Shown piece by piece: positions 9,252 to 63,008 of a stretch of 64,000 bases of DNA. Location of the stretch: NCBI GenBank assembly GCA_965223705.1, contig OZ245015.1, positions 1,216,001 through 1,280,000 on the forward strand, written 5' to 3'. Each line of letters opens with the position of its first letter. Position 1 is the stretch's first letter. This stretch comes from Myxococcota bacterium. Lineage in GTDB: Bacteria; Myxococcota_A; UBA9160; UBA6930. The notes beneath the pieces are model-generated. The model was not told the origin of the DNA and searched no databases. It saw only the letters and a program-made list of their open reading frames with translations. Both the position numbers and the translations under genes were made by a program.

Positions 9252-9953
9252 TCAGAGTTGGTCGAGTGCGAGGTGCGCTTCACCAAGCTCCGCAAACGCC
9301 TTCGGTGACCGGCAACGTTCCGGCAACACGTACGGAAGGTGGCCGAAAAAAGGGAGGTTCGAGAATTGTTGGATCATGGCTCGATGGGTTTTATGGGCGA
9401 GGGATTCGTCGGGCGAAGGGAGCACTTCATTGAGGATCCAACCCGCGATCGGAAGGCGGCGGGACGCTAAGGCGTCGAACGTCAAGAGCGCGTGATTGAT
9501 GCAACCGAGCTTTGCGCCGACGACGACGATGACCGGGAGGCCGAGCTCGGCGGCGAAGTCGGCATAGGTGACACCTTCGCCGAAGGGGACGAGTAAGCCG
9601 CCGGCACCTTCCACGAGTACGGGATCGAAGCGTTCGGCGAGGCCGCGAGCCATCGACACCAGGTGGTGCGTGTCGACTTCCGCGCCCGCGGCGCGCGCGG
9701 CAGCGAGGGGCGCGGCGGGGTCCGGAAAACGGACGGGACACACCTCGGCGTCGGACTGCCCGCTCTCGCTCATCGCGAGCAGTTGCGCTCCGTCGGCTGC
9801 GTAGTAGCCGCCGCCGAGTTTCTCGCAGCCGGTTTCGGCGGGTTTGAAGACGCCTACCGGGCGTCCTCTTCGTTTCAGCCCGGCCGCAATCGCGCAGGTC
9901 GCAAACGTCTTCCCCACGCCCGTGTCCGTTCCCGTGACGAAAAACCCAGGCAC
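9252..9953 (-). CDS. bioD: Dethiobiotin synthase
   Basis: GTG 9953; FVTGTDTGVGKT, KPAETG, VEGAGGLLVP, LGCINHALLT. Confidence 0.95.
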   Translation of the reverse strand: MPGFFVTGTDTGVGKTFATCAIAAGLKRRGRPVGVFKPAETGCEKLGGGYYAADGAQLLAMSESGQSDAEVCPVRFPDPAAPLAAARAAGAEVDTHHLVSMARGLAERFDPVLVEGAGGLLVPFGEGVTYADFAAELGLPVIVVVGAKLGCINHALLTFDALASRRLPIAGWILNEVLPSPDESLAHKTHRAMIQQFSNLPFFGHLPYVLPERCRSPKAFAELGEAHLALDQL

Positions 9954-9955
9954 CG

Positions 9956-15624: not shown

Positions 15625-16392
15625 TCAACGCATCGTCGTGTAACCGCCGTCGACGGCGAGTGTCTGGCCCGTGACCATTCGTGCGGCGTCACCGGCGAGG
15701 TAGATCACCGCCGCCGCCATTTCGTAGGGCTCCGCGAGACGGCCCATCGGGACTTTCTCGAGATGGCGCGCGAAGTCCGGGTTCTTGACGGCCTCTTCGA
15801 GGAGCGGCGTCCGCGTAAAGGTGGGAGCGACACAATTGACGGTGATTTGGTGGGTCGCCCACTCGCCGGCGAGAGACCGCGTCATTTGGTGGACCGCACC
15901 TTTCGCGGCGCCGTAAGGCACGCGCTGCGGCGCGCCGATAATGCCCGCCTGGGACGTGATCGAAATGACGCTTCCGGGAATGCCCGCCTCGATCATGCGT
16001 CTGCCGTTCGCGAGGGTCATGCGCAGGGTGCCCTTGAAGTTCACGTCGATGATTTCGTCGAGTTCGTTGTCGTCGTACGCGATGGCGTCTTTGGGCGTAT
16101 TGATGCCGGCGTTGTTGACGAGCACGTCCACGCGGCCGAACGCGCTCCACGCGCTTTCCGTAAAGGACGCGATACTCGCCGCGTCTCCGATATCGAGTCG
16201 AAACGCCTCGGCCCGGACACCCGCTTCCCGGCAGCTCTTCGCGACGGCTTCGCATTCGGAGACGTTCCGGCTCCCCAGAACGACGTCGCCTCCAAAAGCC
16301 GCCACTTCTGTGGCGATGGACTTACCGATTCCCCGGCCGGCACCGGTGACGATGACGGTCTTTCCCGAGAGATCAAAGCGCACTTGATTCAA
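15625..16392 (-). CDS. SDR family oxidoreductase
   Basis: TGAGRGIG, NNAG, YGAAK, VTGQTLAVDGG; the TTG start overlaps the ligD stop. Confidence 0.9.
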   Translation of the reverse strand: MNQVRFDLSGKTVIVTGAGRGIGKSIATEVAAFGGDVVLGSRNVSECEAVAKSCREAGVRAEAFRLDIGDAASIASFTESAWSAFGRVDVLVNNAGINTPKDAIAYDDNELDEIIDVNFKGTLRMTLANGRRMIEAGIPGSVISITSQAGIIGAPQRVPYGAAKGAVHQMTRSLAGEWATHQITVNCVAPTFTRTPLLEEAVKNPDFARHLEKVPMGRLAEPYEMAAAVIYLAGDAARMVTGQTLAVDGGYTTMR

Positions 16393-18929
16393 TTCGTTGC
16401 TCCTTCGGCTGAGACACCTTCGAGGTGTTCGACGAGCGACTGAAGTAGGCGCCCGAGATCGAGCGACGCCGACAACAGATCCTGCATCGGGTCGCCGCGC
16501 TGCGCCATTTGGCGGGGCGTGCGGACCACGTTCCAGCGGTTCGGATCGAGACGGCGCGTGACCTGCCCCCAGGTGAGCGGCGTCGAAACCGGCGCACCGG
16601 GGAGCGGCCGAACGGAGAACGGCGCGGCGATGAGCTTACCGCGGCCGTTTTGCAGGTAGTCGACGTAGACCTTGTCCCCGCGCGCCGCCACGGGTCGCGT
16701 CACCGTCGCGATCTCCGGAAGCTCCGCGCACAACACCCGCGCGAGAATTTCGGCGAGGTGCTTCGCTTCTTCGTGACCGATCGCTTCCGCTCCAGCCAGC
16801 GGAACGAGGATGTGGAGGCCCGCCTGGCCGGAAGTTTTCACGAAGTGGGGTGTCGCGAGTTCGGTCAGCAAGCGGTGTGCGACACGAGCGATCTCGACCA
16901 CGTGACGAAACGGCGCCTCCTTCGGATCGAGATCGAGGATCAACCAGTCGGGGCGGTCGAGCCGCCCGCGGCGGGCGGTCCAGACGTGGAGCGGGATCGC
17001 GCCGGAGTTGATGACATAGAGCAGGGTGCGAAGATCGTTGCAAATGAAGTAGTCGGTGTCGTCGATAGGTTCTCGCGTCACCCACGGCGGAGTAAACTCC
17101 GGCGCATTCTTTTGATAGAAGTGCTTGCCGTCGATGCCGTCCGGGTAGCGGGTGAGAACCACCGGTCGGTCGCGCAAGTATGGGGCGAGCCAGGGCCAGA
17201 TCGTTTCGTAGTAGCGAAGGAGATCGCCCTTCGTGTACCCGTCGACTGGCCAAAACACTTTATCGAGTCGCGTGAGGTTGGGCTCCGCGGGTTCTGACTT
17301 CGCAATCGGAGAAGCATTGCGATCGGCGGCGCGGGTTTCCGGGGCCGCGCACGTCTCCGGCGCAACGTCGTCGCGCCACTCGAGGAACACCGGGTGGCGC
17401 ATGACGCCGGCGTTCGTGAGCTCCGTATAGCGGCCTTCGCAGACCAGAAGTGGCTCGAGGAGCCGCGTGCCGCGCGGCAGGGGCGCAGGGAGCCCCTGCA
17501 CCGTCGAAGTGTCTCGCTCGTGATCCGCTGCGAACGACAAGGCGCGGGAAACGGAATCTTCGCTGAGTCCCGATCCCAAGTTCCCGGCATACGTGAGCAC
17601 GCCGTCGCGGTACCAGCCGCACATGAGGGAGCCGAGTGCCTTGCGCGAGCCTTTGCCGGGCGAAATGCCGACGACCACGAGATTCGCGGTGCGCGGGATC
17701 TTGAGTTTTTGCCAATCGGGGGATCGTTGACCGGATCGATACGGAGAATCCATCCGCTTCGCGACGACGCCTTCGAGGCCAAAGTCTCGTGCGGCTTCGT
17801 ACAGGCGTTCGCCATCGACTTCGACGTGATCGGCGAAGCGCACAACGCCGCGCTGGGGGCAGAACTCGGCGAGGATTTCCTTTCGCTTGACGAGCGGCAA
17901 CCCGCGCAGATCCCGACCGAGGACAGACAGAGCGTCGAATGCCACGAACGTCACCGGGAGCTCTGCCGCAGCAGCCGCGACTCCATCGGGGTCGGTCTGC
18001 GTAAAACGCCGCTGGATTTTTTCGAATGAGCTGCGCCCCGAGTTGTCAAACACCGCGATCTCACCGTCGATGGCGAACTCGTCGATGGGTACGTGGCGAA
18101 GCGCATTCACGAGCTCGGGATAGAGCGCCGCGCGATCGGCGCCGCTCCGCACGCGGAGCGTGACGTCATCGCCCCGTCGGATGGCGACCGCGCGCACCCC
18201 ATCGACCTTGAGCTCGAACAACCAACCCGCCCGCGAAAAGGGGCCGTCTCCTCGTGCTGCCAACATGGGCGCGTAGTCGTCACCACCGAGCTCTCGATTG
18301 CGAACGCCTCGCTTCGGTAGAGCCGCTTCGACTTCGTCTTTTCGCGTGACGCCCTGCGCGACTTCCTCGACGCGCAGCCCGCTGAAGACCGACTCCGGTG
18401 CCCGCATGGCTTCCGCAGCGGACGCGTCGAGCGCGCGGCCCTTTCGGAAAAGGAGCCAGTCGCGACCTTCACCGCGCTTCGTCTGCACCAGAGCGAAACG
18501 CCCGCGCAGTTTGTGTCCGTCGATTTCGAGGTCGAGCTTTCCGGCATCGAGAGCAGCGGCGGGACTCCGCCCGTCGACGCTTCGATAGACGCCGCAGTCC
18601 CAGACGATCATCGCCCCGGCGCCGTAGTTTCCTTCGGGGATGACGCCCTCGAAAGCCGCGTATTCGATCGGGTGGTCTTCGGTCCGAACGGCGAGACGCT
18701 TTTCCTCGGGATCGATGCTGGGTCCTTTGGGCACCGCCCAGCTGACCAGAACGTCACCGATTTCGAGACGTAAATCCCAGTGGAGCTGTCTGGCCGCATG
18801 TTGCTGTACGACAAACCGATAAGAAGCGTCGGGGGCGCGCCGCAGGGGAGGGCGCTCCTCGCCGAACGGTTCGGGAGTGCGTGTGGCGTCGCGCTTCGCG
18901 CGATATGCACGGAGATCTCGCGGGCTCAA
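16389..18929 (-). CDS. ligD: NHEJ DNA ligase D (phosphoesterase-ligase-polymerase domain order)
   Basis: PE: YRAKRD..RTPEP, FVVQQHAARQLHWDLRLE, SWAVPKGP, EDHPIEY. LIG: ELKVDG, EGVVAKR..SPY, WQKLK. POL: TRYPDG, FYQKN, DLDP, KTSG..GLH, YVDYLQN. Confidence 0.96.
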   Translation of the reverse strand: MSPRDLRAYRAKRDATRTPEPFGEERPPLRRAPDASYRFVVQQHAARQLHWDLRLEIGDVLVSWAVPKGPSIDPEEKRLAVRTEDHPIEYAAFEGVIPEGNYGAGAMIVWDCGVYRSVDGRSPAAALDAGKLDLEIDGHKLRGRFALVQTKRGEGRDWLLFRKGRALDASAAEAMRAPESVFSGLRVEEVAQGVTRKDEVEAALPKRGVRNRELGGDDYAPMLAARGDGPFSRAGWLFELKVDGVRAVAIRRGDDVTLRVRSGADRAALYPELVNALRHVPIDEFAIDGEIAVFDNSGRSSFEKIQRRFTQTDPDGVAAAAAELPVTFVAFDALSVLGRDLRGLPLVKRKEILAEFCPQRGVVRFADHVEVDGERLYEAARDFGLEGVVAKRMDSPYRSGQRSPDWQKLKIPRTANLVVVGISPGKGSRKALGSLMCGWYRDGVLTYAGNLGSGLSEDSVSRALSFAADHERDTSTVQGLPAPLPRGTRLLEPLLVCEGRYTELTNAGVMRHPVFLEWRDDVAPETCAAPETRAADRNASPIAKSEPAEPNLTRLDKVFWPVDGYTKGDLLRYYETIWPWLAPYLRDRPVVLTRYPDGIDGKHFYQKNAPEFTPPWVTREPIDDTDYFICNDLRTLLYVINSGAIPLHVWTARRGRLDRPDWLILDLDPKEAPFRHVVEIARVAHRLLTELATPHFVKTSGQAGLHILVPLAGAEAIGHEEAKHLAEILARVLCAELPEIATVTRPVAARGDKVYVDYLQNGRGKLIAAPFSVRPLPGAPVSTPLTWGQVTRRLDPNRWNVVRTPRQMAQRGDPMQDLLSASLDLGRLLQSLVEHLEGVSAEGATN

Positions 18930-18993
18930 CGGGCCCTATGTTAGGTTCACCGGCCCGCTTCCCGCGAACTTGCCCCTCCCCGAGGTACCCCGA

Positions 18994-19878
18994 ATGGCAG
19001 CTCGAGCGACGGCCTCCGGAACGATCAGCTTCGGCTTGGTTTCGATCCCCGTAAAGCTCTACACGGCGGCGAGCTCCAAAGCCGTGCGCTTCAACATGCT
19101 CGATCCCTCCGACCATTCGCGGGTGAAGCAGCAGTACGTAAACGCCACGAGCGGGGAAGTGGTCGAACGGACCGCCCTGGTCAAAGGCTACGAGTACGCC
19201 CGCGGCCAATACGTCGTGATGTCGGAAGAGGAGTTGAAAGAGCTCGAAGCGAAGAGCGATCGGTCGATCGAGATCGAAGCGTTCGTCCCGATCGAGAGCG
19301 TCGACCCGGTCTACTTCGAGAAGTCGAACTTGCTCGGTCCGGACAAGGGCGGCCAAAAGGCGTACCGACTGCTCAATCAGGCGATGAACAAGATGGGCGT
19401 CGTGGCGGTGGGGCGCTTTGCGACGCGCGGTCGGCGACAGCTCGTGTTGATCCGGCCGCTCGGCGAGGGCCTGGTGCTCCAGGGTTTGTACTACGCCGAC
19501 GAAGTGCGTCGCTTCGACGATATCGAATTCGGCGACGCCGTTGAGATCAAGAAGACAGAGCTCGACCTCGCCGAACAGCTCGTTGAACAACTCACGCAGA
19601 AGAGTTTCCGAGCCGACGCGTACGAAGACGACTACCGCAAGGCCGTGCTCGACGCCGTCGATCGGAAAGTCGCCGGGGAAGAGTTCGTGGTCGTCCGCGA
19701 AGAAGAAGAACGCGAGCAGATCATCGATCTCGTCGCCGCGCTCAAAAAGAGTATCGAAGAGCGAGGCGACGGGGGCACAGCCACTTCCGCGACCGGTCGA
19801 CCGCGGAAGGCGGCGAAGTCAAAAGGCAAGTCCACGAAGAAAACGGCGAAGGCGAGTCGCAAGCGCGCTGCAAAGTAA
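18994..19878 (+). CDS. ku: Non-homologous end joining protein Ku
   Basis: ATG 18994; GTISFGLVSIPVKLY, LVKGYEY, YYADEVR, IDLVAALKKS, Lys/Ala-rich basic C-terminal tail. Confidence 0.96.
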   Translation: MAARATASGTISFGLVSIPVKLYTAASSKAVRFNMLDPSDHSRVKQQYVNATSGEVVERTALVKGYEYARGQYVVMSEEELKELEAKSDRSIEIEAFVPIESVDPVYFEKSNLLGPDKGGQKAYRLLNQAMNKMGVVAVGRFATRGRRQLVLIRPLGEGLVLQGLYYADEVRRFDDIEFGDAVEIKKTELDLAEQLVEQLTQKSFRADAYEDDYRKAVLDAVDRKVAGEEFVVVREEEEREQIIDLVAALKKSIEERGDGGTATSATGRPRKAAKSKGKSTKKTAKASRKRAAK

Positions 19879-19900
19879 ATCGGCGCGCTAGACTCGCCGC

Positions 19901-20710
19901 GTGAGCCGGACGCTTTCCACGGCCGAGGCCGCCCGCATCACGGGCCTGAGTGAAGTGCAAGTGCGTCGCATCGCCCGCTCCGGGCTGCGGCGGCCGGCGC
20001 GCTCCAGCCGGCGCTACGCGTTTACGTTTCAAGATCTCGTCGTGCTGCGCGCGGCCCAGACGTTGATCGAGTCCGGAGTCGCCCCGGGACGCACCGCGCG
20101 TGTGCTGTCCGATCTCGCCGCCGCACTGCCCGGCGAGCGCGCACTCTCGGCGGTGCGTGTGTACGCCGAAGGACGCCGGGTCGCCGTGCGGGATGAAGCC
20201 GGCGCGTGGGACGCCGAAACCGGGCAAGTGCTTCTCGATTTCGACGTGGCGGATTTTGCCGAGGCGACGGGTCCGGCCTTCCGCGTTGGCGGTGCGGACG
20301 ACGACGCGTCTCCGTTCGATCGTGCCCTCGATCTGGAGGAGTCCGATCCCAAGGCCGCCGCCGAGGCATACCGCGAGGTCCTGCGGCTCGCGCCGGATCA
20401 TATCGACGCTCATGTCAATCTCGGCAGGCTCTGCCACGAAGCGGGCGATCTGGAAGGAGCCGAGGCGCTCTACCGCGAAGCGTTCGAGCTGTGCCCGGAC
20501 GATCCGGTCGTCCTCTTCAACCTGGCCCTCGTGCTCGAGGACGCCCGTCGGCTCGAGGAGGCCGTCGCTTGCTATCGCGAAGTCCTACAGATCGATCGTG
20601 ATTTCAGTGACGCGCACTTCAACATCGCGAGTCTCTTCGAAGAGCTGCAGCGCCCCGCCGAGGCGCTGCGCCACTATCGCGACTACCAGCGTTTGCGCGA
20701 TCGGGATTGA
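19901..20710 (+). CDS. MerR-type HTH + tetratricopeptide repeat protein
   Basis: N-terminal STAEAARITGLSEVQVRRIARSGL...YAFTFQDLVVLR (MerR-like HTH). C-terminal TPRs: AHVNLGRL, VLFNLALVLED, AHFNIASL. Confidence 0.82.
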   Translation: MSRTLSTAEAARITGLSEVQVRRIARSGLRRPARSSRRYAFTFQDLVVLRAAQTLIESGVAPGRTARVLSDLAAALPGERALSAVRVYAEGRRVAVRDEAGAWDAETGQVLLDFDVADFAEATGPAFRVGGADDDASPFDRALDLEESDPKAAAEAYREVLRLAPDHIDAHVNLGRLCHEAGDLEGAEALYREAFELCPDDPVVLFNLALVLEDARRLEEAVACYREVLQIDRDFSDAHFNIASLFEELQRPAEALRHYRDYQRLRDRD

Positions 20711-20756
20711 GCGCGATCCGTTAAACTGATGTCCCCCTCTATAAGGAGCCTCCCCC

Positions 20757-21623
20757 ATGAAGTTCGGCGTCTTCTTCTCCTCCGTCGGTCCGTTTGTTCA
20801 GCCCGACAATCTCGCTCACCTAGCCCGGACGGCAGAGACCACCGGTTTTGAGTCGATGTGGAGCGTCGAGCACGTGGTGATCCCGGTGGGCTACGAGTCC
20901 GCCTATCCGTATGACAAGAGCGGCCGGATCCCGATGCCCGAAGACGTCCCGTTGGCCGATCCGCTGCTTCCTTTCGCCTACGCCGCCGCCGTCACGAAGA
21001 CGCTGAAGTTCGGCAGTGGCGTCTTGATTCTTCCGCAACAGCATCCGCTCTACGTGGCGAAGCAAGCGGCTACGCTCGACCAGCTGACCCAGGGGCGATT
21101 CCTGATGGGCGTCGGGATCGGCTGGCTCGAAGAAGAGTTCGATGCACTGGGCATTCCGTTCTCGGAGCGCGCTCCGCGAACCGAAGAAGCGATTCAGGCG
21201 ATCCGCTCGCTCTGGAAAGACACGCCCGAGGCGTTCGACGGGAAGTTCTACAAGTGGGGGCCGGTACATTCCCAGCCGAAGCCCGCTCAGCAAGGCGGCG
21301 TTCCCATCATCGTCGGCGGCCATGTGGCCGGCGCGGCGCGGCGTGCGGCTCGCTACGGCGACGGCTTCTTCCCCGGAACGTTCGATGCCGAGTCCTTGGC
21401 CAAGGCGCTCGCGGTGATGAAGGACGAGTGCGGCAAGATCGATCGCGATCCTTCCGAGATCGAGATCACGGCGGGTGTCGCGGGAGATGCCGTAGACACG
21501 ATCAAGCGCTGCGAAGACATGGGCGTGTCTCGGGTCCTCATGTTGGATTTTCCCGGTGGTACCCAGGACGAAGTCTCTGCGAACCTCGAGCGCTACGGGA
21601 ACGAGGTCATCGCAAAGGTTTGA
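20757..21623 (+). CDS. LLM-class, probably F420-dependent oxidoreductase (Rv2161c-like)
   Basis: GFESMWSVEHVVIP, DPL, AKQAATLD..GRF..GVGIGW..EEF, PKP, PIIVGG, RRAARYGDG. Confidence 0.85.
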   Translation: MKFGVFFSSVGPFVQPDNLAHLARTAETTGFESMWSVEHVVIPVGYESAYPYDKSGRIPMPEDVPLADPLLPFAYAAAVTKTLKFGSGVLILPQQHPLYVAKQAATLDQLTQGRFLMGVGIGWLEEEFDALGIPFSERAPRTEEAIQAIRSLWKDTPEAFDGKFYKWGPVHSQPKPAQQGGVPIIVGGHVAGAARRAARYGDGFFPGTFDAESLAKALAVMKDECGKIDRDPSEIEITAGVAGDAVDTIKRCEDMGVSRVLMLDFPGGTQDEVSANLERYGNEVIAKV

Positions 21624-21662
21624 TCGCGACCCGAACGTGAGCGACGTACCGAGCGAGCGGAT

Positions 21663-22439
21663 GTGAGCGAAGCACTTTCGGGTGGCGGCTCACCCGGGCG
21701 CCCCTACCGCAATCCCAATCCCGGTGCGGATTGGCCCATCCTCGATTGGTTGTCCGATCTTCGGGGCCGTCTGTTTCGGATCATCCTGCTGGGTCTCGTC
21801 GCCACGGTCGTCGCGTGGGGGTTCCGCGAGGAGATCTTCCGACTCCTCCTCCGTCCGGCGACGCGCGCCCTCGGTAGCGAGGGCGCGCTGCAGGCGATCG
21901 CCCCGACCGAGATCTTCTTCACGTACCTAAAGGCGTCGCTTCTCGCGGGATTCATCGCGATCATCCCGGTCTTCTTCTGGGAACTTTGGCAATTCGTTCG
22001 CAAGGCGACCGGGGGGGGTCGTTCCTGGACGACGCTCGCGTTCGCACTCGCATCGACGATCTTGTTCGCATCGGGGGTGGCGTTCGGCCATTTCTTGGTG
22101 TTCCCCCTGGTCTTCGATTTCTTCGCGTCGTTTTCGTCCTCTTACGTCGAAGCGGCGTGGACGATGCGGGAAGTCTTCAACCTGTCGATTCGACTCATCT
22201 TGGCGTTCGGCATCGGTTTCGAGCTCCCGCTGCTCACCTTCTTCCTCGCCGCAACGGGAATCGTCTCTCCCGAGCGCCTGCTGCGCTTCACGCCCTACGG
22301 CATCCTCGTGGCCTTTGTCCTGGCCGCGATTCTCACGCCGCCCGACGTCATCAGCCAGCTCTTGTTGGCTGCGCCGTTGTCGGTGCTCTACTTGATCGGT
22401 GTCGGCGCCGGAATGCTGGTGGCGCGCCGAGGGTCCTGA
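21663..22439 (+). CDS. tatC: Twin-arginine translocase subunit TatC (divergent paralog)
   Basis: LRGRL, PTEIFFTYLK, AFGIGFELP, AAILTPPDVISQLLLAAP..LY; about six TM helices. Confidence 0.82.
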   Translation: MSEALSGGGSPGRPYRNPNPGADWPILDWLSDLRGRLFRIILLGLVATVVAWGFREEIFRLLLRPATRALGSEGALQAIAPTEIFFTYLKASLLAGFIAIIPVFFWELWQFVRKATGGGRSWTTLAFALASTILFASGVAFGHFLVFPLVFDFFASFSSSYVEAAWTMREVFNLSIRLILAFGIGFELPLLTFFLAATGIVSPERLLRFTPYGILVAFVLAAILTPPDVISQLLLAAPLSVLYLIGVGAGMLVARRGS

Positions 22440-22443
22440 GGCC

Positions 22444-24378
22444 TCAGGCGTCCGAAGGATCGCGGAGTGCGCGCACCGGGGCGAGCCGGCCCGAAGCGGC
22501 GAGCGCTTCGGCAATGCAGCGCCGCAGTGCGACGTCGCCGAAGGGTTTGGGCAAGAAGTGAGGGAACCCATCGGGAAGGGGCCGTTCGCTGGCGAACCCG
22601 CTGGTCAGAATGATTGCCGCTTCGCACCCGTCCCGTCTCAACCGCTCCGCGATAACGAGTCCGGAAATGTCCGGAAGCGTGATGTCGATGAGGATCGCAT
22701 CGAACGCGGCCTGCGGTGCGGCGATGGCTTCCAGGCCTTCGCGTGCGGTTTCTGCGGTGACGACTACACAGCCGGCTAGCTCGAGAATCCGGGAAGCGAT
22801 CTCGCGGACGGAGACCTCGTCGTCGATGATGAGAACCCGCGCGTAGATCTTTTCGTGGCGCTTGGGAGAGCCGGTCTCTTCCGCTTGCGCGTGTTCCGGA
22901 TCGCGAAGCGGGAACAACGCGCGAAAGGTCGTCCCGCGCCCGACCTCGCTTTCGACTTCGAGAATGCCGCCATGGGCCCGAACAATCCCGATCACCGCCG
23001 AAAGCCCGAGACCGCGACCCTGGCCCTTGGTCGTGAAGAAAGGATCGAACATGCGCTCGCGGGTATCGGCGTCGACGCCGTGGCCTTCGTCGCGAACACA
23101 GAGTTCGGCGTACCAGCCCGGCCGCGCGTCCTGGGCGCCCAGGTGGCCGGCCAATCGCGCAGTGCCAACCTCGACGGGCCGGGTTGAAATCCAGACCGCC
23201 CCGTCGCCTCCGGCGAGGGCTTCCGCACCGTTCAAGATCGCGTTGAGTCCCATTTGAAGGACCTCGATCTCGTTGCCGAGAATCGGCAGCGGCGTCGGGT
23301 GAAGATCGATCGAGAGTCGCGTGCCCTTCCCGAGCGAAGGGCGCGCGAGCGAAGCCGATTCGCGCACCACCTGGGACAGGTCGAGGTCCGACGGGCTCTC
23401 GAGTGTCCTCCCGCCGTAGGTCAGGATCCGTTCGCAGAGCTGTCCCGCCCGCTCCGCGAGAACGCCGATTTCGTGCGCGTACCCGGAGGGCTCGGAGTCT
23501 TCGGGAAGCGCGCGCCCGAGCAGATCGGCGTAGCCGAGAATCCCCGTCAAGAGGTTGTTGAAGTCGTGTGCGATACCTCCGGCGAGCACTCCCAGACTTT
23601 CGAGTTTCTGCACCTGTCGCAGGTGACGCTCCGACTCGCGGATCGATTCTTCGCGTTCGCGCTGCTCGGTAACGTCGAGGGCCGTGCTGAGCACGGACCG
23701 AACGTCGCCCTGGGGGCCGAGGCCAAACACGGAATCCCACGTGTGGATGCGGCGCCATTGTCCGTGGGCATTCTGAATCCGGTACTCACTCTCGATGACG
23801 GCGCCTTCCTCGGCCTCGCCGAGTTGTTGGGCGACGGAATAGAAGAGGCCCAGGTCTTCGGGATGAATGCGCTCAGTGAGCAGTCGCAGCCCGCCTTTCT
23901 CCATTTCCGCTTCGGTCAGCCCGTGGAGTTCTTGCCAGCGCACGTTCGCGAAGGCGGTGGTCTGCTTCTCGAGATCGAAGATCGACACCAGGTTGGGACC
24001 CAGATCGGTAATGCGCCGAGCCATCGGTTCTTGGAGGCCTGCGGGAGACGTCGAGACCTCGGAGTAGATCGCGAAGCCGTCGTCGGTTTCCACGCGGTGG
24101 ACGCAGCAGGGAAGCGGCGGGGGCGACGCCCCTTCGCCCGGGCTGTCGTCCGACGCGTGGGGCAGGTGGGTGCGGGCGTAATCGATCAGGGACTGGGTAC
24201 GGGAAGGCCCGAGTTGCGAAAACGCGGCATTTGCGAACGCGAGCTCGCCGTCGGACCGCAGCCAAAAGAGAGGCGCGGCGAGCGCATCGTAGGCGGTACG
24301 CGCGAGCTCGAAAGCTTCGCCGCTGCCCTCGGCGACCACGACTTGCGCCATCACTTCCAGCGCGTTTTCGCCTCTCAT
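22444..24378 (-). CDS. PAS-domain hybrid sensor histidine kinase/response regulator
   Basis: PAS (RIHPEDL...EYRI..HGQWRRI), H-box QKLESLGVLAGGIAHDFNNLL, HATPase (VRDEGHG, FDPFFTTK, GRGLGL), REC (IIDDE, DITLPD, PKPF). Confidence 0.93.
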   Translation of the reverse strand: MRGENALEVMAQVVVAEGSGEAFELARTAYDALAAPLFWLRSDGELAFANAAFSQLGPSRTQSLIDYARTHLPHASDDSPGEGASPPPLPCCVHRVETDDGFAIYSEVSTSPAGLQEPMARRITDLGPNLVSIFDLEKQTTAFANVRWQELHGLTEAEMEKGGLRLLTERIHPEDLGLFYSVAQQLGEAEEGAVIESEYRIQNAHGQWRRIHTWDSVFGLGPQGDVRSVLSTALDVTEQREREESIRESERHLRQVQKLESLGVLAGGIAHDFNNLLTGILGYADLLGRALPEDSEPSGYAHEIGVLAERAGQLCERILTYGGRTLESPSDLDLSQVVRESASLARPSLGKGTRLSIDLHPTPLPILGNEIEVLQMGLNAILNGAEALAGGDGAVWISTRPVEVGTARLAGHLGAQDARPGWYAELCVRDEGHGVDADTRERMFDPFFTTKGQGRGLGLSAVIGIVRAHGGILEVESEVGRGTTFRALFPLRDPEHAQAEETGSPKRHEKIYARVLIIDDEVSVREIASRILELAGCVVVTAETAREGLEAIAAPQAAFDAILIDITLPDISGLVIAERLRRDGCEAAIILTSGFASERPLPDGFPHFLPKPFGDVALRRCIAEALAASGRLAPVRALRDPSDA

Positions 24379-24501
24379 GCTCTTTTTGTTGCGGATAATA
24401 AAGTCATTTAAAAACAGTTACTTAGAAAAAAATTAACGCTTCCGTGAAAGTTGCCGATACGGGGTTTTGTACTGAGTAATTGAAATTCTAAAGGAGCCCA
24501 C
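24379..24501. promoter_or_regulatory. AT-rich divergent promoter region between the hybrid kinase and scyA
   Basis: About 44 G+C in 123 nt (~36%) by hand count, against a GC-rich background; A/T tracts; SD AAGGAG before GTG 24502. Confidence 0.6.
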
Positions 24502-26286
24502 GTGTCCGAGCACCCGAATCCCGAAAGCGTACTGGATCCCGAACGCCCGCTCCCTGGTTGGGATGGGGCCAAGACCGTCTCCGGACTCAAGGACATTCCT
24601 CTCCTCGCGGAACAACAAACGCAGGAGCCTCGAGAATGCCGTGTGGCCGATGCCCTGGTCGGCGCCTTCGCCGACATGGGAATCCGCCGGGCCTACGGCG
24701 TTTCGGGCGGCGCGATGGCGACGTTCTGGGAAGCGCTCACCTTGAGCGACCTCTCGGTGCTCCATTTCCGTCACGAAGGTGGGGCCGCTTTCGCAGCGAT
24801 CGAGGCCCACTTCGCCTCGGACGAACCGGTGCTGCTTTTCACGACGGCGGGTCCGGGCATTACGAACGCCCTGACGGGGATCCTCGCCGCGAAAGGAGAG
24901 GGCGCGAAAATCGTGATGGTTTCCGCGTGCACGCCGGCCGGTCAGCGCGGCCGCTTCGGCACACAGGAAACCGACTTTCAAACCTTGCCCGCATCCGGGA
25001 TTTTTTCGTCCGGTCCACTTTTCGATTGCGCCGAAGTCATCGAGAGCGCCGATCAACTGCCGCAACTGGTGCGCCGACTGAAGAGTGGGCTCGAGGGCCC
25101 GGGCGGGTTCACCGCTCACGTGAGCTTGACGACCCGTGTTCAGACGGAAGCGGCGCCGCGAGAGTTCGCATCGATCACCCGAGCGCCGGCACCTGAGAGC
25201 GATCGCGGTAGTGCGGCCGACGTCGCCGCGCGACTCGCGGGAAAGCGCTTCGCCCTCTGGGTCGGGTTCGGAGCACGTCACGCTTCGCGCGAGATCGTTC
25301 GCTTTGCCGAGCGCTACGGCACGCCTGTGTTCGCTACGCCTCGCGGAAAGGGCGTTTTTCCCGAGTCGCATCTGCTTTACACGGGCGTGACGGGCCTCGG
25401 TGGTCACACCAGTGTCGCGGAGACGCTGTCGAGCTACGCACCGGAGTTCGTGCTGGTCCTCGGCACCCGTCTACACGAATCGAGCTCGTTCTGGTCCGGC
25501 GACTATGCGCCGCCCGGTGGCTTCATCCACGTCGACGTGGATCCTACGGTTCCCGGACAGGCTTACTGCGATCAGCCCACCGTCGTCGTACAGGCCGAGA
25601 TCGCCGCGTTCCTCGCGGTCCTCACCGAAGAGCTCGGCGATGCGTCGCCCGATGATGACTGGCTTCCGCGCAAGCCGATCCCGGCGAACCCCGGCACTTC
25701 GCAACCCGGACGCGTGCGCCCCGAGTTCCTGATGGAGGCGATTCAATCCGGCGTCATCGACGACACGGACGCCATCGTGATCGCAGAGTCCGGCAACTCG
25801 TTCATCTGGAGCCAGCACCACCTGTCGTTCGATCAGCCGCGTCGGTATCGCGCGAGTACCCAGGTCGGCTCGATGGGTCACGCCGTCGCTGGTGTGGTCG
25901 GCGCGGCCCACGCCACGGGTCGGAAGGCCGTCGCCATCACCGGCGATGGGTCCATGCTCATGAACAACGAGATCAGCACGGCGGTCGCGCACGGCATTCC
26001 GGCGGTCTGGGTCATCCTGAACGACGGCCATTACAACATGTGTCGCCAGGGAATGGCGTCCCTCGGTCTGTCGCCTGCGGATACCGCGATTCCGCCGACG
26101 GATTTCGTCGGGATCGCGCGGGCGATGGGGGCGGACGGTCTGCGCGTCGGGTGCGAAGACGATCTCAAGACCGCCTTCGACCGCGCCCTCTCCTCGAACC
26201 GGCCGTTCGTGTTGGACGTCCTGGTAGACGTCGACGCCCAGGCGCCGTCGCACGGTCGCAATCGCCGCCTCGCGGCCCAACGCTAG
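24502..26286 (+). CDS. scyA: ThDP-dependent acyloin synthase, ScyA-type (scytonemin biosynthesis)
   Basis: GVSGGAMATFW, FRHEGGAAFAA.EA, TTAGPGITNALTG..AA.GEGAK, QRGR...QET, ESGNSF.W, GDGSMLMNNEISTAV..IPA.W..LND..YNM, APSHGRN. These track recalled Nostoc ScyA along its full length, and the gene is adjacent to scyC. Confidence 0.82.
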   Translation: MSEHPNPESVLDPERPLPGWDGAKTVSGLKDIPLLAEQQTQEPRECRVADALVGAFADMGIRRAYGVSGGAMATFWEALTLSDLSVLHFRHEGGAAFAAIEAHFASDEPVLLFTTAGPGITNALTGILAAKGEGAKIVMVSACTPAGQRGRFGTQETDFQTLPASGIFSSGPLFDCAEVIESADQLPQLVRRLKSGLEGPGGFTAHVSLTTRVQTEAAPREFASITRAPAPESDRGSAADVAARLAGKRFALWVGFGARHASREIVRFAERYGTPVFATPRGKGVFPESHLLYTGVTGLGGHTSVAETLSSYAPEFVLVLGTRLHESSSFWSGDYAPPGGFIHVDVDPTVPGQAYCDQPTVVVQAEIAAFLAVLTEELGDASPDDDWLPRKPIPANPGTSQPGRVRPEFLMEAIQSGVIDDTDAIVIAESGNSFIWSQHHLSFDQPRRYRASTQVGSMGHAVAGVVGAAHATGRKAVAITGDGSMLMNNEISTAVAHGIPAVWVILNDGHYNMCRQGMASLGLSPADTAIPPTDFVGIARAMGADGLRVGCEDDLKTAFDRALSSNRPFVLDVLVDVDAQAPSHGRNRRLAAQR

Positions 26287-26297
26287 GAGCCCATCCG

Positions 26298-27248
26298 ATG
26301 GAAAAGAACACGTTTGCTACGTCGGCCTACATCGACGCACCGATGGACGACATCTTCGCCTACCTCGGCGATCTAAAGAATCTCGGTGAGTGGACACTGT
26401 TCAGCAAAATGCAGGAGCAGGTCGACGACGACACCTGGATCGGAACCGCGTCGGGCTACCAAAGCGAGCTCTACTACCACGTGCGTCGCTTCGAAAGCTC
26501 GAAGTTCCGTGGCATCGAGTGGCACTGCGGGCTCACCTACAACGAGTACCACCAGGTCTACCCGGTGTTGCTGTTTCCGTCGCAGTACATCGATCCCGCG
26601 TCCACCGAAACCGGTGCGTACTTCCATTGGGTGAGCTTCGTCGATCCCAAACGCCGAACGCGTATGATCAAAGAAGGCATCGATACGGTGCACAATTCCG
26701 AGTGTCGCTCTCTCAAAGCGAACCTCGAGCGCAAGGCCGGCCATAGCGGAGCCGTTCCCGCGAACTACCGCATCGAGACCGACACTATCTTCGTGGACGC
26801 GCCCGTCGCGATCGGCGTCAATTTCCTGCAGGACATCTCGCACGTCGCCGAATGGGCGCATTTGCTGACCCCCGAGAATCCGAACGATCCCGGTGCCGGG
26901 AAGTTTCTCGACGAGTACGGGCAGCGCGTCGAGGCGAGTGTGCATGTGCGCGAGATGGGTGGCTACTTCCTGCTCGAGCAAGACTTCGCCTACACCGACA
27001 GCCACTTCGTGCAGCGCTGCCCGGCGATCCTCATTCCGTGTTCGTACGCGTTCGGCGACAATTCGGCCTTGGGATTCCTGCTGCACCGCATCGCCTTTTT
27101 TCCCGAAGGCGAGAAGCTTCGCAACGGTCACTTGACGATCGATGACTACGGAGCCGAGAGCATCAACATCAAACGCATGATCGAAGCGCGCGCGGGAAAC
27201 CTGAAGAGCTTCGGGGAGGGTCGAAGCTACCGACCGGACTTGCCCTAG
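26298..27248 (+). CDS. scyC: Scytonemin biosynthesis cyclase/decarboxylase ScyC
   Basis: Start moved to ATG 26298 (SD AGGAG). MEKNTFATSAYI, EWTL.S.M.EQVD.DTW.GTASGY, GIEWHCGL.Y, YFHW.SFVDPKR, SECRSLK.NLERKAG, GAES.NIKR..EA.AGNLKSF match recalled cyanobacterial ScyC. Confidence 0.88.
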   Translation: MEKNTFATSAYIDAPMDDIFAYLGDLKNLGEWTLFSKMQEQVDDDTWIGTASGYQSELYYHVRRFESSKFRGIEWHCGLTYNEYHQVYPVLLFPSQYIDPASTETGAYFHWVSFVDPKRRTRMIKEGIDTVHNSECRSLKANLERKAGHSGAVPANYRIETDTIFVDAPVAIGVNFLQDISHVAEWAHLLTPENPNDPGAGKFLDEYGQRVEASVHVREMGGYFLLEQDFAYTDSHFVQRCPAILIPCSYAFGDNSALGFLLHRIAFFPEGEKLRNGHLTIDDYGAESINIKRMIEARAGNLKSFGEGRSYRPDLP

Positions 27249-27499
27249 CGCGGAGGATCGCTCGGCTCAGGTGCTGCGCGGCCTACGGCCCGTTCCGCGT
27301 GCCTCCGGACGGCCGCGAGCCACCGCCGCGCGAAGGCGAACTCGAGGGACAAGATGGCGAGTCCGGCCGGGATGACCACAAACGCGGGGCCCGGCAGCAC
27401 CAGGAGTGCGATCCCCACGAGGAGGACGGTCACGCCTACGACGGTGACGACGACCCGCCGAGCCGTCTTGTAGCTCGCTTCTAAAAACTTCTGGAACAC
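27245..27499 (-). CDS. PGPGW-domain small membrane protein
   Basis: GVTVLLVGIALLVLPGPAFVVIPAGLAILSLEFAFARR; GTG 27499 start is approximate. Confidence 0.8.
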   Translation of the reverse strand: MFQKFLEASYKTARRVVVTVVGVTVLLVGIALLVLPGPAFVVIPAGLAILSLEFAFARRWLAAVRRHAERAVGRAAPEPSDPPR

Positions 27500-27606
27500 G
27501 CTGACCCTGATACGAAATGAGCGGTCGGAACGTTCGTTTCCCCGTGGGGGCAGGGATCTTCCCGCGCCCGCTGCGGTATTATGGGAACTCATCCTGGAGG
27601 AAGCGA

Positions 27607-29013
27607 ATGCGAGGACTCGCCGCTTACGGCGTCTATCTACCCCACTATCGACTCGACCGGAACCGGATCAAGGGCACCTTGGGGCAGGGAGGCGGAAAGG
27701 GGACCCGAGCCGTCGCTTCCTACGACGAAGACACGACGTCGATGGGCGTCGAGGCGGCGCGAGCCTGCCTCTCGAGCGTCGACGTAGTCCCCGAGCGCCT
27801 CTTCTTCGCGACGGCGAACCCGGCGTATCAGGACAAGACGAACGCGACGACCATCCACGCGGCCCTCGATCTCCCCCGCAACGCTTTCGCCGGTGACGCG
27901 ACGGGTTCGGTGCGCTCGAGCGTCGTCGCTGCCATGGCCTCCGTCGGTTCCCAGGGCCCCGCGCTCGCGGTCGCGGCAGACCTTCGCGTCGGCCTACCGT
28001 CCGGCAAAGACGAATCCGAAGGGGGGGACGCCGCCGCCGCGCTGCTCTTCGCCGACGACGGCGACACCCCGGTGATCGCGGAAATGCTCGGTCGGGCGAG
28101 TAGCACCGGGGAGTTCCTCGATCGCTGGCGAACGCCCGGCGACCCGGCCTCGAAGGTTTGGGAAGAACGCTACGGCGAAGCCATCTATCTCGATCACGTC
28201 AAGGAAGCGACGCAGGAAGCGCTCGCTGCTGCCGGGATCAGCGCAGATCAACTGTCGAAGGTGGTCATCTCGGGCCTTCACAGCCGCGCGGTTCGAGGGG
28301 CGGCGCGCACGATTGGGGCGAAGCCCGAGGCGTACGTCGACGACCTGACCGGCGTAATCGGCAATACCGGCTCGGCGCATCCCTATCTCCTGCTGGCATC
28401 CGTCCTCGACACGGCGGAGCCGGGACAGACGATCGCACTGGTCGTCCTCGCCGACGGCTGCGACGTCGCGATCTTGCGCACGACCGATGCGATCGCGAGC
28501 TACCAGCCCGCCCGCACGGTCGCCGAGAGCGTCGCCGGCGGCGGCGACGATCTCGACTACGCGCTCTACCTCTCCTGGCGAGGATTCCTCAACCGCGAGC
28601 CCCCGCGCCGACCCGACCCTGTGCGCCCGGCGGCTCCGCCGGCGGGGCGCGCCGAGGACTGGAAGTTCGCCTTCGTCGGCTCTCGCGACCGGAAGAGCGG
28701 TGCGATCCACTTGCCGCCGCAACGCACGTCGATGAAGGGCGGTAACGTCGATGACATGGAGCGGGTCCGTATGGCCGATGTACCCGCCACGATTGCTACC
28801 TTTACCATCGATCGCCTGGCGTATTCGCCGAGCCCGCCGATGGTGGTGGCCGTGATCGATTTTGACGGTGGGGGCCGGTTCCGCTGCGAGATGACCGATG
28901 TCGATCCGAATCAGGTCAAGATCGGCGATCGGGTACAGATGACGTTCCGCAAGCTCTTCACCGCAGACGGTGTGCACAACTACTTCTGGAAGGCTCGCCC
29001 GATCTCGGGCTGA
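27607..29013 (+). CDS. HMG-CoA synthase-like / DUF35 OB-fold fusion protein
   Basis: ATG 27607 (SD GGAGG). YGVYLPHYRL, EDTTSMGVEAA, GGDAAAA, IGNTGSAH; C-terminal TFTIDRLAYSPSPP..AVIDFDGGGR...IGDRVQMTFRK...NYFWKARP. Confidence 0.85.
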   Translation: MRGLAAYGVYLPHYRLDRNRIKGTLGQGGGKGTRAVASYDEDTTSMGVEAARACLSSVDVVPERLFFATANPAYQDKTNATTIHAALDLPRNAFAGDATGSVRSSVVAAMASVGSQGPALAVAADLRVGLPSGKDESEGGDAAAALLFADDGDTPVIAEMLGRASSTGEFLDRWRTPGDPASKVWEERYGEAIYLDHVKEATQEALAAAGISADQLSKVVISGLHSRAVRGAARTIGAKPEAYVDDLTGVIGNTGSAHPYLLLASVLDTAEPGQTIALVVLADGCDVAILRTTDAIASYQPARTVAESVAGGGDDLDYALYLSWRGFLNREPPRRPDPVRPAAPPAGRAEDWKFAFVGSRDRKSGAIHLPPQRTSMKGGNVDDMERVRMADVPATIATFTIDRLAYSPSPPMVVAVIDFDGGGRFRCEMTDVDPNQVKIGDRVQMTFRKLFTADGVHNYFWKARPISG

Positions 29014-29025
29014 GAGGAGACCACA

Positions 29026-30216
29026 ATGGCTTCTAAGGGAATCAAAGACCGTGTCGCAATCGTCGGTATGGGCTGCACGCCTTTCGGCGAGCACTGGGAT
29101 AAGAGCGCAGACGACTTGCTCGTCGATGCGACGGAAGAATGTTTCGCGAGCTCGGGCATCGATAAGTCCGACGTCGACGCCTATTGGTTTGGCACCATGG
29201 CGTCGGGCGTTTCGGGGCTCGCGCTTTCCGCGCCGCTCCAGCTCGACTACAAGCCCGTGACACGGCTCGAGAACATGTGCGCCACGGGTTCCGAGGCGAT
29301 TCGCAATGCCGCTTATGCCGTAGCGTCGGGCGCGTACGACATCGTGATGGCGGCCGGCGTCGAGAAGCTCAAGGACTCCGGCTACTCGGGCCTCGTCGTC
29401 CAGGATCCGCCGAACGATGGGACGCTCCCGGCGATGACGCCGCCGGCCACGTTCAGCCTGCTCGCCCCGGCGTACCAGGAAAAGTACGGCCTGACGGATG
29501 AAGAGCTGCGCGACGCGTTGGCGCACATCGCTTGGAAGAACCACGCGAACGGCGCACTGAACCCGCGCGCCCAGTTCCAGAAAGAAGTTCCGAAAGACGC
29601 GATCTGCCAGTCACCGTTGGTCGCCGGAAAGCTCGGCATCTTCGATTGCTCGGGCGTTTCCGACGGTTCGGCCTGCGCGATCTTGGTGCGCGAGGAAGAC
29701 GCGCACAAGTACACGGACAAGCCGCTCTACATCAAGGCGCTGTCCTTCGCGTCGGGCCCGGCCACCGGCGGGATCGATTCGAGCTACGACTACACCACGT
29801 TCCGCGAGGTCGTCGCTTCCGCCGAGGATGCCTACCAGCAAGCGGGAGTTACGAACCCCCGAGCAGAAATCGCCATGGCAGAAGTTCACGACTGCTTTAC
29901 ACCGACCGAGATGGTGTTGATGGAGGACCTCCAGTTCTGCCCGCGCGGCACGGCTTGGAAGGAGGCCCTCGACGGTACGTTCGATCTCCACGGCGAGCTG
30001 CCGATCAACCCCGACGGAGGGTTGAAGAGCTTCGGCCACCCGATCGGCGCTTCCGGCCTTCGCATGATGTTCGAAAACTGGCTCCAGCTCCGGAAAGAAG
30101 CGCCGGCGGATCGCCAGATCGACAACGGCAAGACGCTCGGCATGACCCACAACCTGGGCGGCCAGCCCGGCGCCTGCGTCTCCTTCGTTTCGATCGTGGG
30201 AGCCGAGAAGGGCTAA
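29026..30216 (+). CDS. SCP2/archaeal-type thiolase (acetyl-CoA C-acyltransferase)
   Basis: VAIVGMGCTPFG, ENMCATGS (catalytic Cys), EVHDCFT, GGLKSFGHPIGASG, HNLGG. Confidence 0.9.
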   Translation: MASKGIKDRVAIVGMGCTPFGEHWDKSADDLLVDATEECFASSGIDKSDVDAYWFGTMASGVSGLALSAPLQLDYKPVTRLENMCATGSEAIRNAAYAVASGAYDIVMAAGVEKLKDSGYSGLVVQDPPNDGTLPAMTPPATFSLLAPAYQEKYGLTDEELRDALAHIAWKNHANGALNPRAQFQKEVPKDAICQSPLVAGKLGIFDCSGVSDGSACAILVREEDAHKYTDKPLYIKALSFASGPATGGIDSSYDYTTFREVVASAEDAYQQAGVTNPRAEIAMAEVHDCFTPTEMVLMEDLQFCPRGTAWKEALDGTFDLHGELPINPDGGLKSFGHPIGASGLRMMFENWLQLRKEAPADRQIDNGKTLGMTHNLGGQPGACVSFVSIVGAEKG

Positions 30217-30245
30217 AGCGCACGCGACCGTGTGGCAACGAACCG

Positions 30246-30283
30246 GGGGGCCGGAGCGTCGCGCTCCGGCCCCCGTTCTTTTT
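30246..30283 (+). terminator. Rho-independent terminator
   Basis: 13-bp perfect stem GGGGGCCGGAGCG-TCG-CGCTCCGGCCCCC followed by GTTCTTTTT, 30 nt after the thiolase stop. Confidence 0.8.
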
Positions 30284-30297
30284 GACGAGGGGAACCC

Positions 30298-31449
30298 ATG
30301 GCACACCGAAACGCCTACATGACCGATGAGCTGCAAGCGATCTACGATCAGACGGTTTCGTTTGTCGAGAAGGAGGTCATGCCCGAAGGCACGGCGTGGG
30401 AAGAAGCCGGCAAGGTTCCGCGGGATGTGCTCCGCAAGATGGGGAGCCTCGGCATGTTCGGGCTTCGCGTTCCCGAAGAGCTGGGAGGTGTCGGGCTCGG
30501 CCCGCTCGCATCGGCCGCATTCTCCGAGGCCTTGGGCGCTTCGACGTTCGCCGGCTTCGACGTGACCGTGCTGGTTCACACCGACATGGCGGGTCCTCAC
30601 CTGGTCAATTCCGGCAGTCGCGCGCAGTGGGAACGTTATCTGCCGGCGGCGTTGTCCGGGGAGCTCATCCTCTCGATCGCCGTGACGGAGCCCGACGCGG
30701 GATCGGACGTGGCGGGCATTCGCTCGACGGCTGTTCGCGACGGGGACGGCTGGCGGATCAACGGACGCAAGACGTTCATCACGAACGCGGTTTACGGCGA
30801 TCTGACGATCGCAGCGGCGCGAACGGATCCCGACAACAAGTACGGGATCTCCATGTTCTTGGTTCCGGCGGGCACCGAAGGATTCACGGTCGCCAAGAAA
30901 CTCGACAAACACGGCTGGCGCTGTTCGGATACCGCCGAGCTCGTGTTCGATGATGTGTTCGTGCCCGACGATCAACTGCTCGGTACCCCCCATCGCGGCT
31001 TCTACGAGACGATGAAGAATTTTCAGAACGAGCGGATGGTCCTGGTCGGAATGGGGATCGGAGCCGCTCAGGCCGCGATCGACATGACGCTCACGTACAC
31101 ACAAGAGCGGCGCGCGTTCTCGGGACATCTGTTCGATCTCGGCGCCATCCGCCAGCGGCTGGCGATGAATCAGGCCAAGGTCGACGCGGTCCGGGCGAGT
31201 ATGTACCACGCGGCTTGGCTGGGAGAACAAGGCGTCGACAACGTGAAAGAGATGTCGGGCGTAAAGGCGTGGGGCTGCGAAGTCGTGAACCAGGTGATGT
31301 ACGACTGCGTCCAGTTCCACGGCGGCACGGGCTTCATGAGCGAGTCGAATATCGAGCGGATGTATCGCGACGCCCGCGTTCTTCCGATCGGCGGCGGGGC
31401 CACCGAAGTGATGCTCGAAGAAGTCGCGAAACGCTCGTTGCGGGGCTAG
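30298..31449 (+). CDS. Acyl-CoA dehydrogenase
   Basis: VPEELGGVG, AVTEPDAGSDV, NGRKTFITN, DTAELVFD, QFHGGTG, RDARVLPIGGGATE. Confidence 0.93.
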   Translation: MAHRNAYMTDELQAIYDQTVSFVEKEVMPEGTAWEEAGKVPRDVLRKMGSLGMFGLRVPEELGGVGLGPLASAAFSEALGASTFAGFDVTVLVHTDMAGPHLVNSGSRAQWERYLPAALSGELILSIAVTEPDAGSDVAGIRSTAVRDGDGWRINGRKTFITNAVYGDLTIAAARTDPDNKYGISMFLVPAGTEGFTVAKKLDKHGWRCSDTAELVFDDVFVPDDQLLGTPHRGFYETMKNFQNERMVLVGMGIGAAQAAIDMTLTYTQERRAFSGHLFDLGAIRQRLAMNQAKVDAVRASMYHAAWLGEQGVDNVKEMSGVKAWGCEVVNQVMYDCVQFHGGTGFMSESNIERMYRDARVLPIGGGATEVMLEEVAKRSLRG

Positions 31450-55504: not shown

Positions 55505-55546
55505 GCAGCGAACGGTAACGCATGGCGATCAGCTATCCTCGGCGTC

Positions 55547-61929: not shown

Positions 61930-61934
61930 CGGCT

Positions 61935-62953: not shown

Positions 62954-62972
62954 GAGACCATTACCCCACTCG

Positions 62973-63005: not shown

Positions 63006-63008
63006 GGC

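Follow-up and report, generated by a model that had tools for sequence, protein, structure and literature searches.

Scytonemin biosynthesis in cyanobacteria is the closest described counterpart of the locus examined here, a two-gene operon of a scyA-like gene and scyC in a 64,000-nt stretch (the window; positions are counted from its first letter) of contig OZ245015.1 from a Myxococcota bacterium. ScyA joins p-hydroxyphenylpyruvate as donor to indole-3-pyruvate as acceptor (PMC9822442), and ScyC cyclises and decarboxylates the labile ScyA product to a ketone one oxidation short of the scytonemin monomer, averting its spontaneous decarboxylation (PMC4870267). Only the monomer is formed by E. 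coli expressing scyABC or by Nostoc lacking scyE or ebo (PMC6282210, PMC7997468, PMC4870267), and scyE and ebo are both needed for scytonemin in Nostoc (PMC6282210). ScyA, ScyB and ScyC serve as diagnostic of scytonemin capacity and have been used for Paleoproterozoic dating with one Methylocaldum as tentative outgroup; the same 2022 phylogeny reported ScyA, ScyB and ScyC homologues in Methylocaldum marinum and divergent ScyA-like proteins in Myxococcales and Acidobacteria (PMC9796282). Variants of scyA plus scyB retrieved by EvoMining were, in the accessible text, cyanobacterial only (PMC6939163). Searches of the open literature, subscription journals and supplements lying outside their scope, turned up no account of pairs lacking scyB or of a likeness between ScyC and the carbazole cyclase CqsB2.

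The window pair shares with the cyanobacterial cluster (scyABCDEF, ebo and trp/aro/tyr genes in Nostoc punctiforme and others) a ScyC, a ScyA-clade enzyme, the order of A before C and a divergent kinase upstream. Unlike that cluster, it has no scyB between A and C, and its thiamine diphosphate (ThDP) enzyme falls under the ScyA cut-off; its host has no photosynthetic reaction centre, and no scyD/E, ebo or dedicated supply genes were found in the locus or genome. We propose that this intact operon probably directs the synthesis of a monomeric cyclopenta[b]indol-2-one, with the scytonemin-monomer skeleton or that of a close analogue, and not of scytonemin, the product being predicted from the sequence and its homologues. 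Other uncultured bacteria with similarly stripped-down pairs may likewise make one-unit indole alkaloids. The locus is real, intact and ordinary in its parts; what is new is the stripped arrangement and the host, and it is one of a scattered, undescribed family.

The downstream gene product, a 316-aa protein beginning MEKNTFATSAYI, matched the ScyC model NF035924 at 495.2 bits (cut-off 400) over model positions 1–312 of 312, bearing out the sequence-only reading that had called it ScyC. It is 58% identical to the ScyC of Nostoc punctiforme NIES-2108, is encoded by the sole scyC copy in the genome, and retains 104 of the 110 positions that are invariant in 21 cyanobacterial ScyC sequences, all six changes being non-charged or peripheral-looking. 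No sequence match was present in the PDB. A full structure model (predicted local distance difference test score (pLDDT) 88) and a profile match between the N-terminal and C-terminal halves (probability 97.8, E 1e-12) indicate a predicted architecture of two tandem START/Bet v1 domains; a single-sequence model of the C-terminal half was too poor for use (pLDDT 44), and support for the second domain therefore comes from the full model together with the half-to-half match. Di-domain aromatase/cyclases and CqsB2 ranked first in a Foldseek search, and a wide structural search with the N-terminal domain placed CqsB2 at the top (Z 17.1, root mean square deviation 2.3 Å over 145 residues; next Z 13.8).

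CqsB2 acts in a Streptomyces pathway with a similar logic. In carquinostatin and neocarazostatin biosynthesis a ThDP enzyme (CqsB3/NzsH) likewise uses indole-3-pyruvate, which is supplied by an aminotransferase and not a dehydrogenase, and a cofactor-free Bet v1-fold cyclase (CqsB2/NzsI) then closes a ring onto the indole (PMC7466098). The carbazole pathway differs in needing a KASIII-like enzyme and acyl carrier protein (ACP)-bound acyl groups and in forming a six-membered ring; CqsB2 has one domain and ScyC two, at 17% identity. The shared predicted fold shows no shared mechanism, yet the parallel is close; it would tie scytonemin ring closure to carbazole ring closure and offers residues to mutate, among them the invariant polar H61, E74, Y84, Y88, H110, H132, E135, H263 and E287. 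A nearby HMG-CoA-synthase-like/thiolase gene pair was considered as a carbazole-type KASIII (CqsB1/NzsJ) partner and rejected, being kept in relatives without scyAC.

The upstream gene encodes an enzyme whose best model is that of ScyA, NF035923, with the next family after the ScyA models at 190 bits and acetolactate synthase models at most 190. It is 50% identical to NIES-2108 ScyA across 602 columns and retains 150 of the 169 positions invariant in 20 cyanobacterial ScyA sequences. All three ThDP domains are present with intact motifs, including the HE92 glutamate and G481-D482-G483...N507, which we take to be the cofactor-binding features, and trees placed the enzyme with ScyA, not with acetolactate synthases. 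Among solved structures, those of BbmA and CsmA (PDB 8x3x, 8x3z), two stand-alone acyloin synthases, come nearest to it. The enzyme belongs to the ScyA clade without being filed under the ScyA equivalog, so 'ScyA-like' is the exact term. Elsewhere in the phylum, ScyA-like enzymes occurred in 12 of 400 other genomes, none with a ScyC over cut-off; four of these scyC-less enzymes included in a tree formed a clade separate from the window enzyme. The loci of these enzymes are L211–L223 (genomes G080, G398, G276 and others); three of them, in the same class, have an LLM-type oxidoreductase gene in front and a receiver-domain gene nearby.

Genome-wide searches revealed no complete scy cluster elsewhere, in line with the absence of scyB, scyD/E and ebo that had been read from the window. 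In the host genome (4.56 Mb in 2 contigs, 65% GC, 95% complete, 0.6% contaminated, not closed), the best ScyB match scored 217 bits against a cut-off of 600 and is a 335-aa Leu/Phe/Val-type dehydrogenase (36%), unlinked and 0.62 Mb from scyAC; the best ScyD/E-family match reached 29 bits against a cut-off of 80. With one cyanobacterial tblastn query each, and no hidden Markov model search for ebo, ScyD, ScyE and EboA, B, C, E and F gave no genome match; ScyF gave a partial match at 30%, and an EboD match was rejected since it coincides with the position of the AroB match. The reaction-centre family PF00124 had no genome match with a Synechococcus control positive, and neighbouring genes cluster with Myxococcota and Myxococcales sequences, which agrees with the earlier assignment to a non-cyanobacterial heterotroph. 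A rhodopsin search returned no match anywhere, controls included. Precursors appear to be available from housekeeping metabolism, as had been suggested: trpE, D, C, F, B and A, a pheA-type gene, hisC and a tyrA-family gene form one genome cluster, 12 class I/II pyridoxal phosphate (PLP)-enzyme matches were found, of which 9 were classified, and no p-hydroxyphenylpyruvate dioxygenase and no IorA-type enzyme over cut-off were found in the genome. HisC- or AspC-type enzymes are able to deaminate tryptophan. The class I/II PLP enzyme in the window was rejected as an aromatic aminotransferase, being BioF.

In the proposed pathway, tryptophan would be converted to indole-3-pyruvate by a housekeeping aminotransferase (the HisC of the trp/aro cluster or an AspC-like enzyme) or possibly by the Leu/Phe/Val-type dehydrogenase, with p-hydroxyphenylpyruvate or phenylpyruvate coming from the tyrA and pheA genes. 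By homology, the ThDP enzyme would decarboxylate an aryl-pyruvate donor and add it to indole-3-pyruvate, giving a labile beta-keto acid. ScyC, given the conservation of its family, would then close the five-membered ring onto the indole and decarboxylate the intermediate before it decays to an open acyloin, and air oxidation might, more speculatively, yield the fluorescent ene-one monomer. Because no ScyE dimerase or Ebo export genes were seen in the genome, the product would stay a monomer. Least certain is the donor, given that loops next to the conserved QE motif are altered in the enzyme of this lineage. As to its role, the product would more readily be a low-level signal or an antimicrobial than a sunscreen, since there is no boosted precursor supply.

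Assembly and composition argue that the pair belongs to its host. Four sequencing runs (two samples of one study, possibly the source) yielded contigs that cover the stretch at even depth, and single contigs span the locus at 19500–30575 (X1), 19500–31326 (X3) and 23348–31326 (X4); 18 sequence variants were listed, 16 within genes, and those in scyA (7 of 7) and the kinase gene (3 of 3) were silent. GC content is even along the window, GC at third codon positions is 0.775 for scyA and 0.801 for scyC (genome mean 0.754 ± 0.057), and the two genes stand at the 71st and 92nd percentiles of codon adaptation among 3860 long host open reading frames, in agreement with the GC-rich, host-like codons noted earlier. 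Chimerism, which the sequence-only reading had named as a possible refutation, is not supported.

The pair lies within a 4.8-kb indel that also contains the divergent hybrid histidine kinase gene, a membership overlooked in that reading. Flanked here by tatC and a PGPGW gene, the block is missing from both other genomes of the genus (G001 and G002, 87% and 75% complete), where tatC abuts the PGPGW gene and the same HMG-CoA-synthase-like and thiolase genes follow. This genome was the single one with a ScyC among 41 close relatives and among 193 genomes of the order, and the single one with a ScyC over cut-off among 401 of the phylum. Intact relatives of the two proteins are known all the same: ScyC at 80–82% (P0004, P0123 and P0124) and a ScyA-like enzyme at 77% (P0290), with P0135 and P0292 also counted among the closest. 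The window thiolase clusters at 90% with Myxococcota and Myxococcales records, among them P0278, and the best kinase match is also from Myxococcota/Myxococcales. P0004, P0290 and P0278 each come from a contig 14,117 bases long, and this equal length hints that another organism has the arrangement too. A Myxococcales kinase orthologue (NNL87312, 69%) lacks the PAS part; on its contig of 7,999 bases the thiolase NNL87315 follows three accession numbers later, an arrangement that deletion of scyC, scyA and the 5' end of the kinase gene would explain, as would a kinase that never stood beside scy genes. Both its host-like codons and the 20% by which its relatives diverge speak for long residence of the pair. 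Signs of a mobile element were not found: there is no tRNA in the window, no flanking repeat and no plasmid match for ScyC.

Surveying 160 scyC loci, 80 from named genomes (the best 80 of 279 matches) and 80 from metagenomes, revealed that absence of scyB follows base composition. All 80 named-genome loci, of which 78 are from named cyanobacteria and two are AT-rich scyABC contigs in other-named bins, and all 46 metagenome loci below 50% GC have scyB (126 of 126), whereas none of the 34 metagenome loci with at least 50% GC has scyB, scyD/E or ebo. The set under-represents distant ScyC relatives, and many of the GC-rich metagenome loci are short contigs. A ScyA-clade gene lies within about 110 nt of scyC in 21 of the 34 and 725–828 nt away, with no scyB match between, in 2; in 5 a ThDP enzyme is encoded farther off, and in 6 the contig shows none. 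Contrary to the sequence-only reading, ScyC is therefore not nearly confined to cyanobacteria: besides these 34 of 80 metagenome loci, it is found in M. marinum, reported with ScyA, ScyB and ScyC homologues (PMC9796282), and in Polyangium aurulentum (WP_136921529.1, labelled ScyC at NCBI), whose protein is 57% identical to the window ScyC and on another branch. A scan of genome contigs with a single window protein gave no match.

The surrounding genes vary. A cytochrome P450 (P450) occurs in 22 of the 34 GC-rich loci, in some fused to ScyC, often followed by SRPBCC, a 220-aa unknown protein and cytochrome c, and one GC-rich locus carries trp and DAHP synthase genes; in the window no P450 follows scyC or is fused to it, and the PGPGW gene on the other strand comes next. 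A six-gene cassette of scyA, scyC, P450, SRPBCC, a 220-aa protein without Pfam match and cytochrome c was seen in L116, L127, L132, L142, L147, L148 and L165, and P450–ScyC fusions in L148, L169, L170 and L171; L148 looks cyanobacterial, judged by its neighbours. Four of the GC-rich loci, L152 (876–7925), L154, L156 and L158, carry in one run an acetolactate-synthase-like ThDP enzyme, receiver-fused in L152 and L158 (where complete), a divergent ScyC-like gene (two were scored, at 350–370 bits) and a hybrid kinase of 900 aa that contains two HATPase domains, possibly a small-molecule synthase wired into phosphorelay signalling. Among loci with scyB, L031 (Scytonema sp. PCC 10023) and L098 (a metagenome match) have the order scyA-scyB-P450-scyC with no scyD/E/F or ebo match in the 19-kb locus, and the Crocosphaera-type L087 and L108 have scyB-scyA-scyC, so scyA abuts scyC in some cyanobacteria. 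The full scyABC contigs L076 and L079, AT-rich and in bins labelled Gracilibacteria and Tatlockia, are probably misbinned cyanobacterial DNA.

Trees were computed in quick mode from part of the 80 genome loci, 21 being used for ScyC and 20 for ScyA, with further rows dropped in later ScyA trees. For both proteins they placed the window pair on a separate branch outside the sampled cyanobacteria and the P450 clade. Sister groups matched between the two trees (P0001 and P0290 with P0135; P0002, P0004 and P0124 with P0014), pointing to a long co-inheritance of scyA and scyC. Two ScyA trees, rooted on a very long outgroup branch, recovered 15–20 cyanobacterial enzymes as one clade inside a non-cyanobacterial grade, but monophyly of the non-cyanobacterial enzymes was not rejected (approximately unbiased test, p 0.098), and cyanobacterial monophyly was lost once the scyC-less Myxococcota enzymes were added. 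It is conceivable, if rather unlikely, that the scyB-less pair is an ancestral mobile cyclopenta[b]indole module, fold-related to carbazole synthases, that spread among heterotrophs with varied add-ons (P450-SRPBCC-cytochrome c, ScyC–P450 fusion, trp genes, histidine kinases), that cyanobacteria added scyB, scyE and ebo to it for scytonemin, and that this genome holds the barest form, the product of which may signal to the kinase.

Several observations weigh against the monomer prediction. The ThDP enzyme scores 747 bits against NF035923 (cut-off 1020) and 697 against the ScyA-related NF035927 (cut-off 1000), so that calling it plain ScyA, as the earlier reading did, was a slight overstatement, although its place in the ScyA clade stands; four other scyB-less ScyA-like enzymes also fell short of the NF035923 cut-off, at 799–846, with a Nostoc control at 1132. 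It carries F152-G153-T154-QE (FGTQE) where most ScyA have W-A-I-QE (WAIQE), and H325/S327/S328 (LHESS) where most have G/P/T (LGEPT). Loops 152–154 and 325–328 line the substrate site, we assume from acetolactate synthase structures, so the donor may not be p-hydroxyphenylpyruvate and the substrates may differ. The genome encodes 14 P450s, 26–33% like cluster P450s, and any one of these could act on the product in trans; the sole scyC variant is a non-synonymous N255D, at a variable column; and the rarity of scyAC (1 of 193 order genomes) implies that it is dispensable. The E. coli reconstitutions described in the available text all included scyB, so that the sufficiency of scyA with scyC alone is a prediction. 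One alternative retains the chemistry but yields a new compound: the altered ThDP enzyme would take a different donor, either a second indole-pyruvate or a branched-chain 2-oxo acid, or a P450 encoded elsewhere in the genome would oxidise or couple the ScyC product, to give an alkaloid unlike the scytonemin monomer. In its favour, the enzyme scores below the cut-offs, the loop changes are common to P0001, P0290 and partly P0135 and are specific to the lineage, the nearest solved structures, BbmA and CsmA, are acyloin synthases, and P450 genes are frequent in GC-rich scyC loci; ScyC is nevertheless strongly conserved, the genome P450s are at most 33% identical to the cluster type, and the block holds no tailoring gene, and a new compound of this kind is rather unlikely.

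The kinase invites a different question, namely what the product is for. A role as an autoinducer-like signal sensed by the PAS domain of the hybrid kinase would be compatible with the monomer chemistry and agrees with the indel block and 123-nt intergenic region that kinase and scyAC share, as well as with the adjacent synthase and kinase genes of the L152, L154, L156 and L158 clade. The window kinase is, however, only 29% like the kinases of that clade; the nearest orthologue among the sampled genomes (45%, in G428) lacks scy neighbours, and G428 has no ScyC; the 69% Myxococcales orthologue lacks the PAS part and is too near the thiolase for two annotated scy proteins; and cyanobacterial scy clusters too have an upstream kinase, which regulates transcription (PMC7997468). 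We therefore consider a signal synthase doubtful. That scytonemin itself is made, with the ScyB, ScyE and Ebo functions coming from unrecognised or unassembled genes, is very improbable: the genome is incomplete by a few per cent and a photolyase gene suggests exposure to light, but ScyB, ScyD/E and EboA, B, C, E and F were not found in its two contigs, Nostoc cannot do without scyE and ebo (PMC6282210), and the GC-rich loci lack scyB, scyD/E and ebo throughout. Hardly more credible is an artefact or a decaying relic, whether misassembled cyanobacterial DNA or a dead remnant. That 192 other genomes searched in the order lack scyC, and that the bridging runs may be the source samples, would allow it; single contigs spanning the locus at even depth, host-like GC and codons, proteins just 55–62% like cyanobacterial ones and on their own branch, intact frames, silent scyA variants and independent relatives at about 80% speak against it. 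The monomer prediction is accordingly kept as the preferred one. The earlier interpretation stands for a true ScyC, no complete scy cluster elsewhere and no chimera, and falls for the near-confinement to cyanobacteria and the unqualified ScyA.

Many scyB-less, non-cyanobacterial pairs mean that ScyC alone is not diagnostic of scytonemin capacity, and they offer better outgroups for the origin of the pathway. They also indicate an unexplored family of indole alkaloids, of which the two-gene form is the easiest to test.

Table 1. Features of the scyA-like–scyC indel block and its flanks (window positions)
Feature	Position	Strand	Evidence
ScyA-clade ThDP-dependent acyloin synthase, 594 aa, GTG start	24502..26286	+	profile models, motifs, tree
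ScyC cyclase/decarboxylase (function by homology), 316 aa, predicted tandem START/Bet v1 (SRPBCC) domains	26298..27248	+	profile and model
scyA-scyC gap, 11 nt; AGGAG overlaps scyA stop codon	26287..26297	+	read from sequence
Divergent intergenic region, 123 nt, AT-rich (36% GC); AGGAG precedes scyA	24379..24501	no strand	
Cytoplasmic hybrid histidine kinase PAS-HisKA-HATPase-REC, 644 aa, divergent from scyA	22444..24378	-	
tatC, left flank of indel site	21663..22439	+	
PGPGW-family small membrane protein, right flank of indel site	27245..27592	-	

The coordinates, the 11-nt gap, AGGAG at both starts and the N-terminus given in the sequence-only reading are all found in the sequence. Overlap of AGGAG with the scyA stop codon suggests translational coupling of scyA and scyC, and the divergent intergenic region is likely the promoter region for both scyAC and the kinase gene; a promoter scan of it gave no match to the sigma-70 consensus. 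Adjoining the indel site, genes that we take to encode LigD and Ku (non-homologous end joining) stand beside a MerR-HTH/TPR protein gene at 16389–20710. Biotin genes lie at 9252–12510, where bioF is confirmed and its neighbours are presumably bioA- and bioD-like. Further along the window are an RPE65/carotenoid-oxygenase-family gene (51846–53279) and an aryl-polyene-type cluster (53936–63656) with ketosynthases, FabG, ApeP and ApeI dehydratases, ACP, acyltransferases, a glycosyltransferase, a LolA-like protein and a tryptophan-halogenase-family gene, the product of which may be a halogenated polyene pigment.

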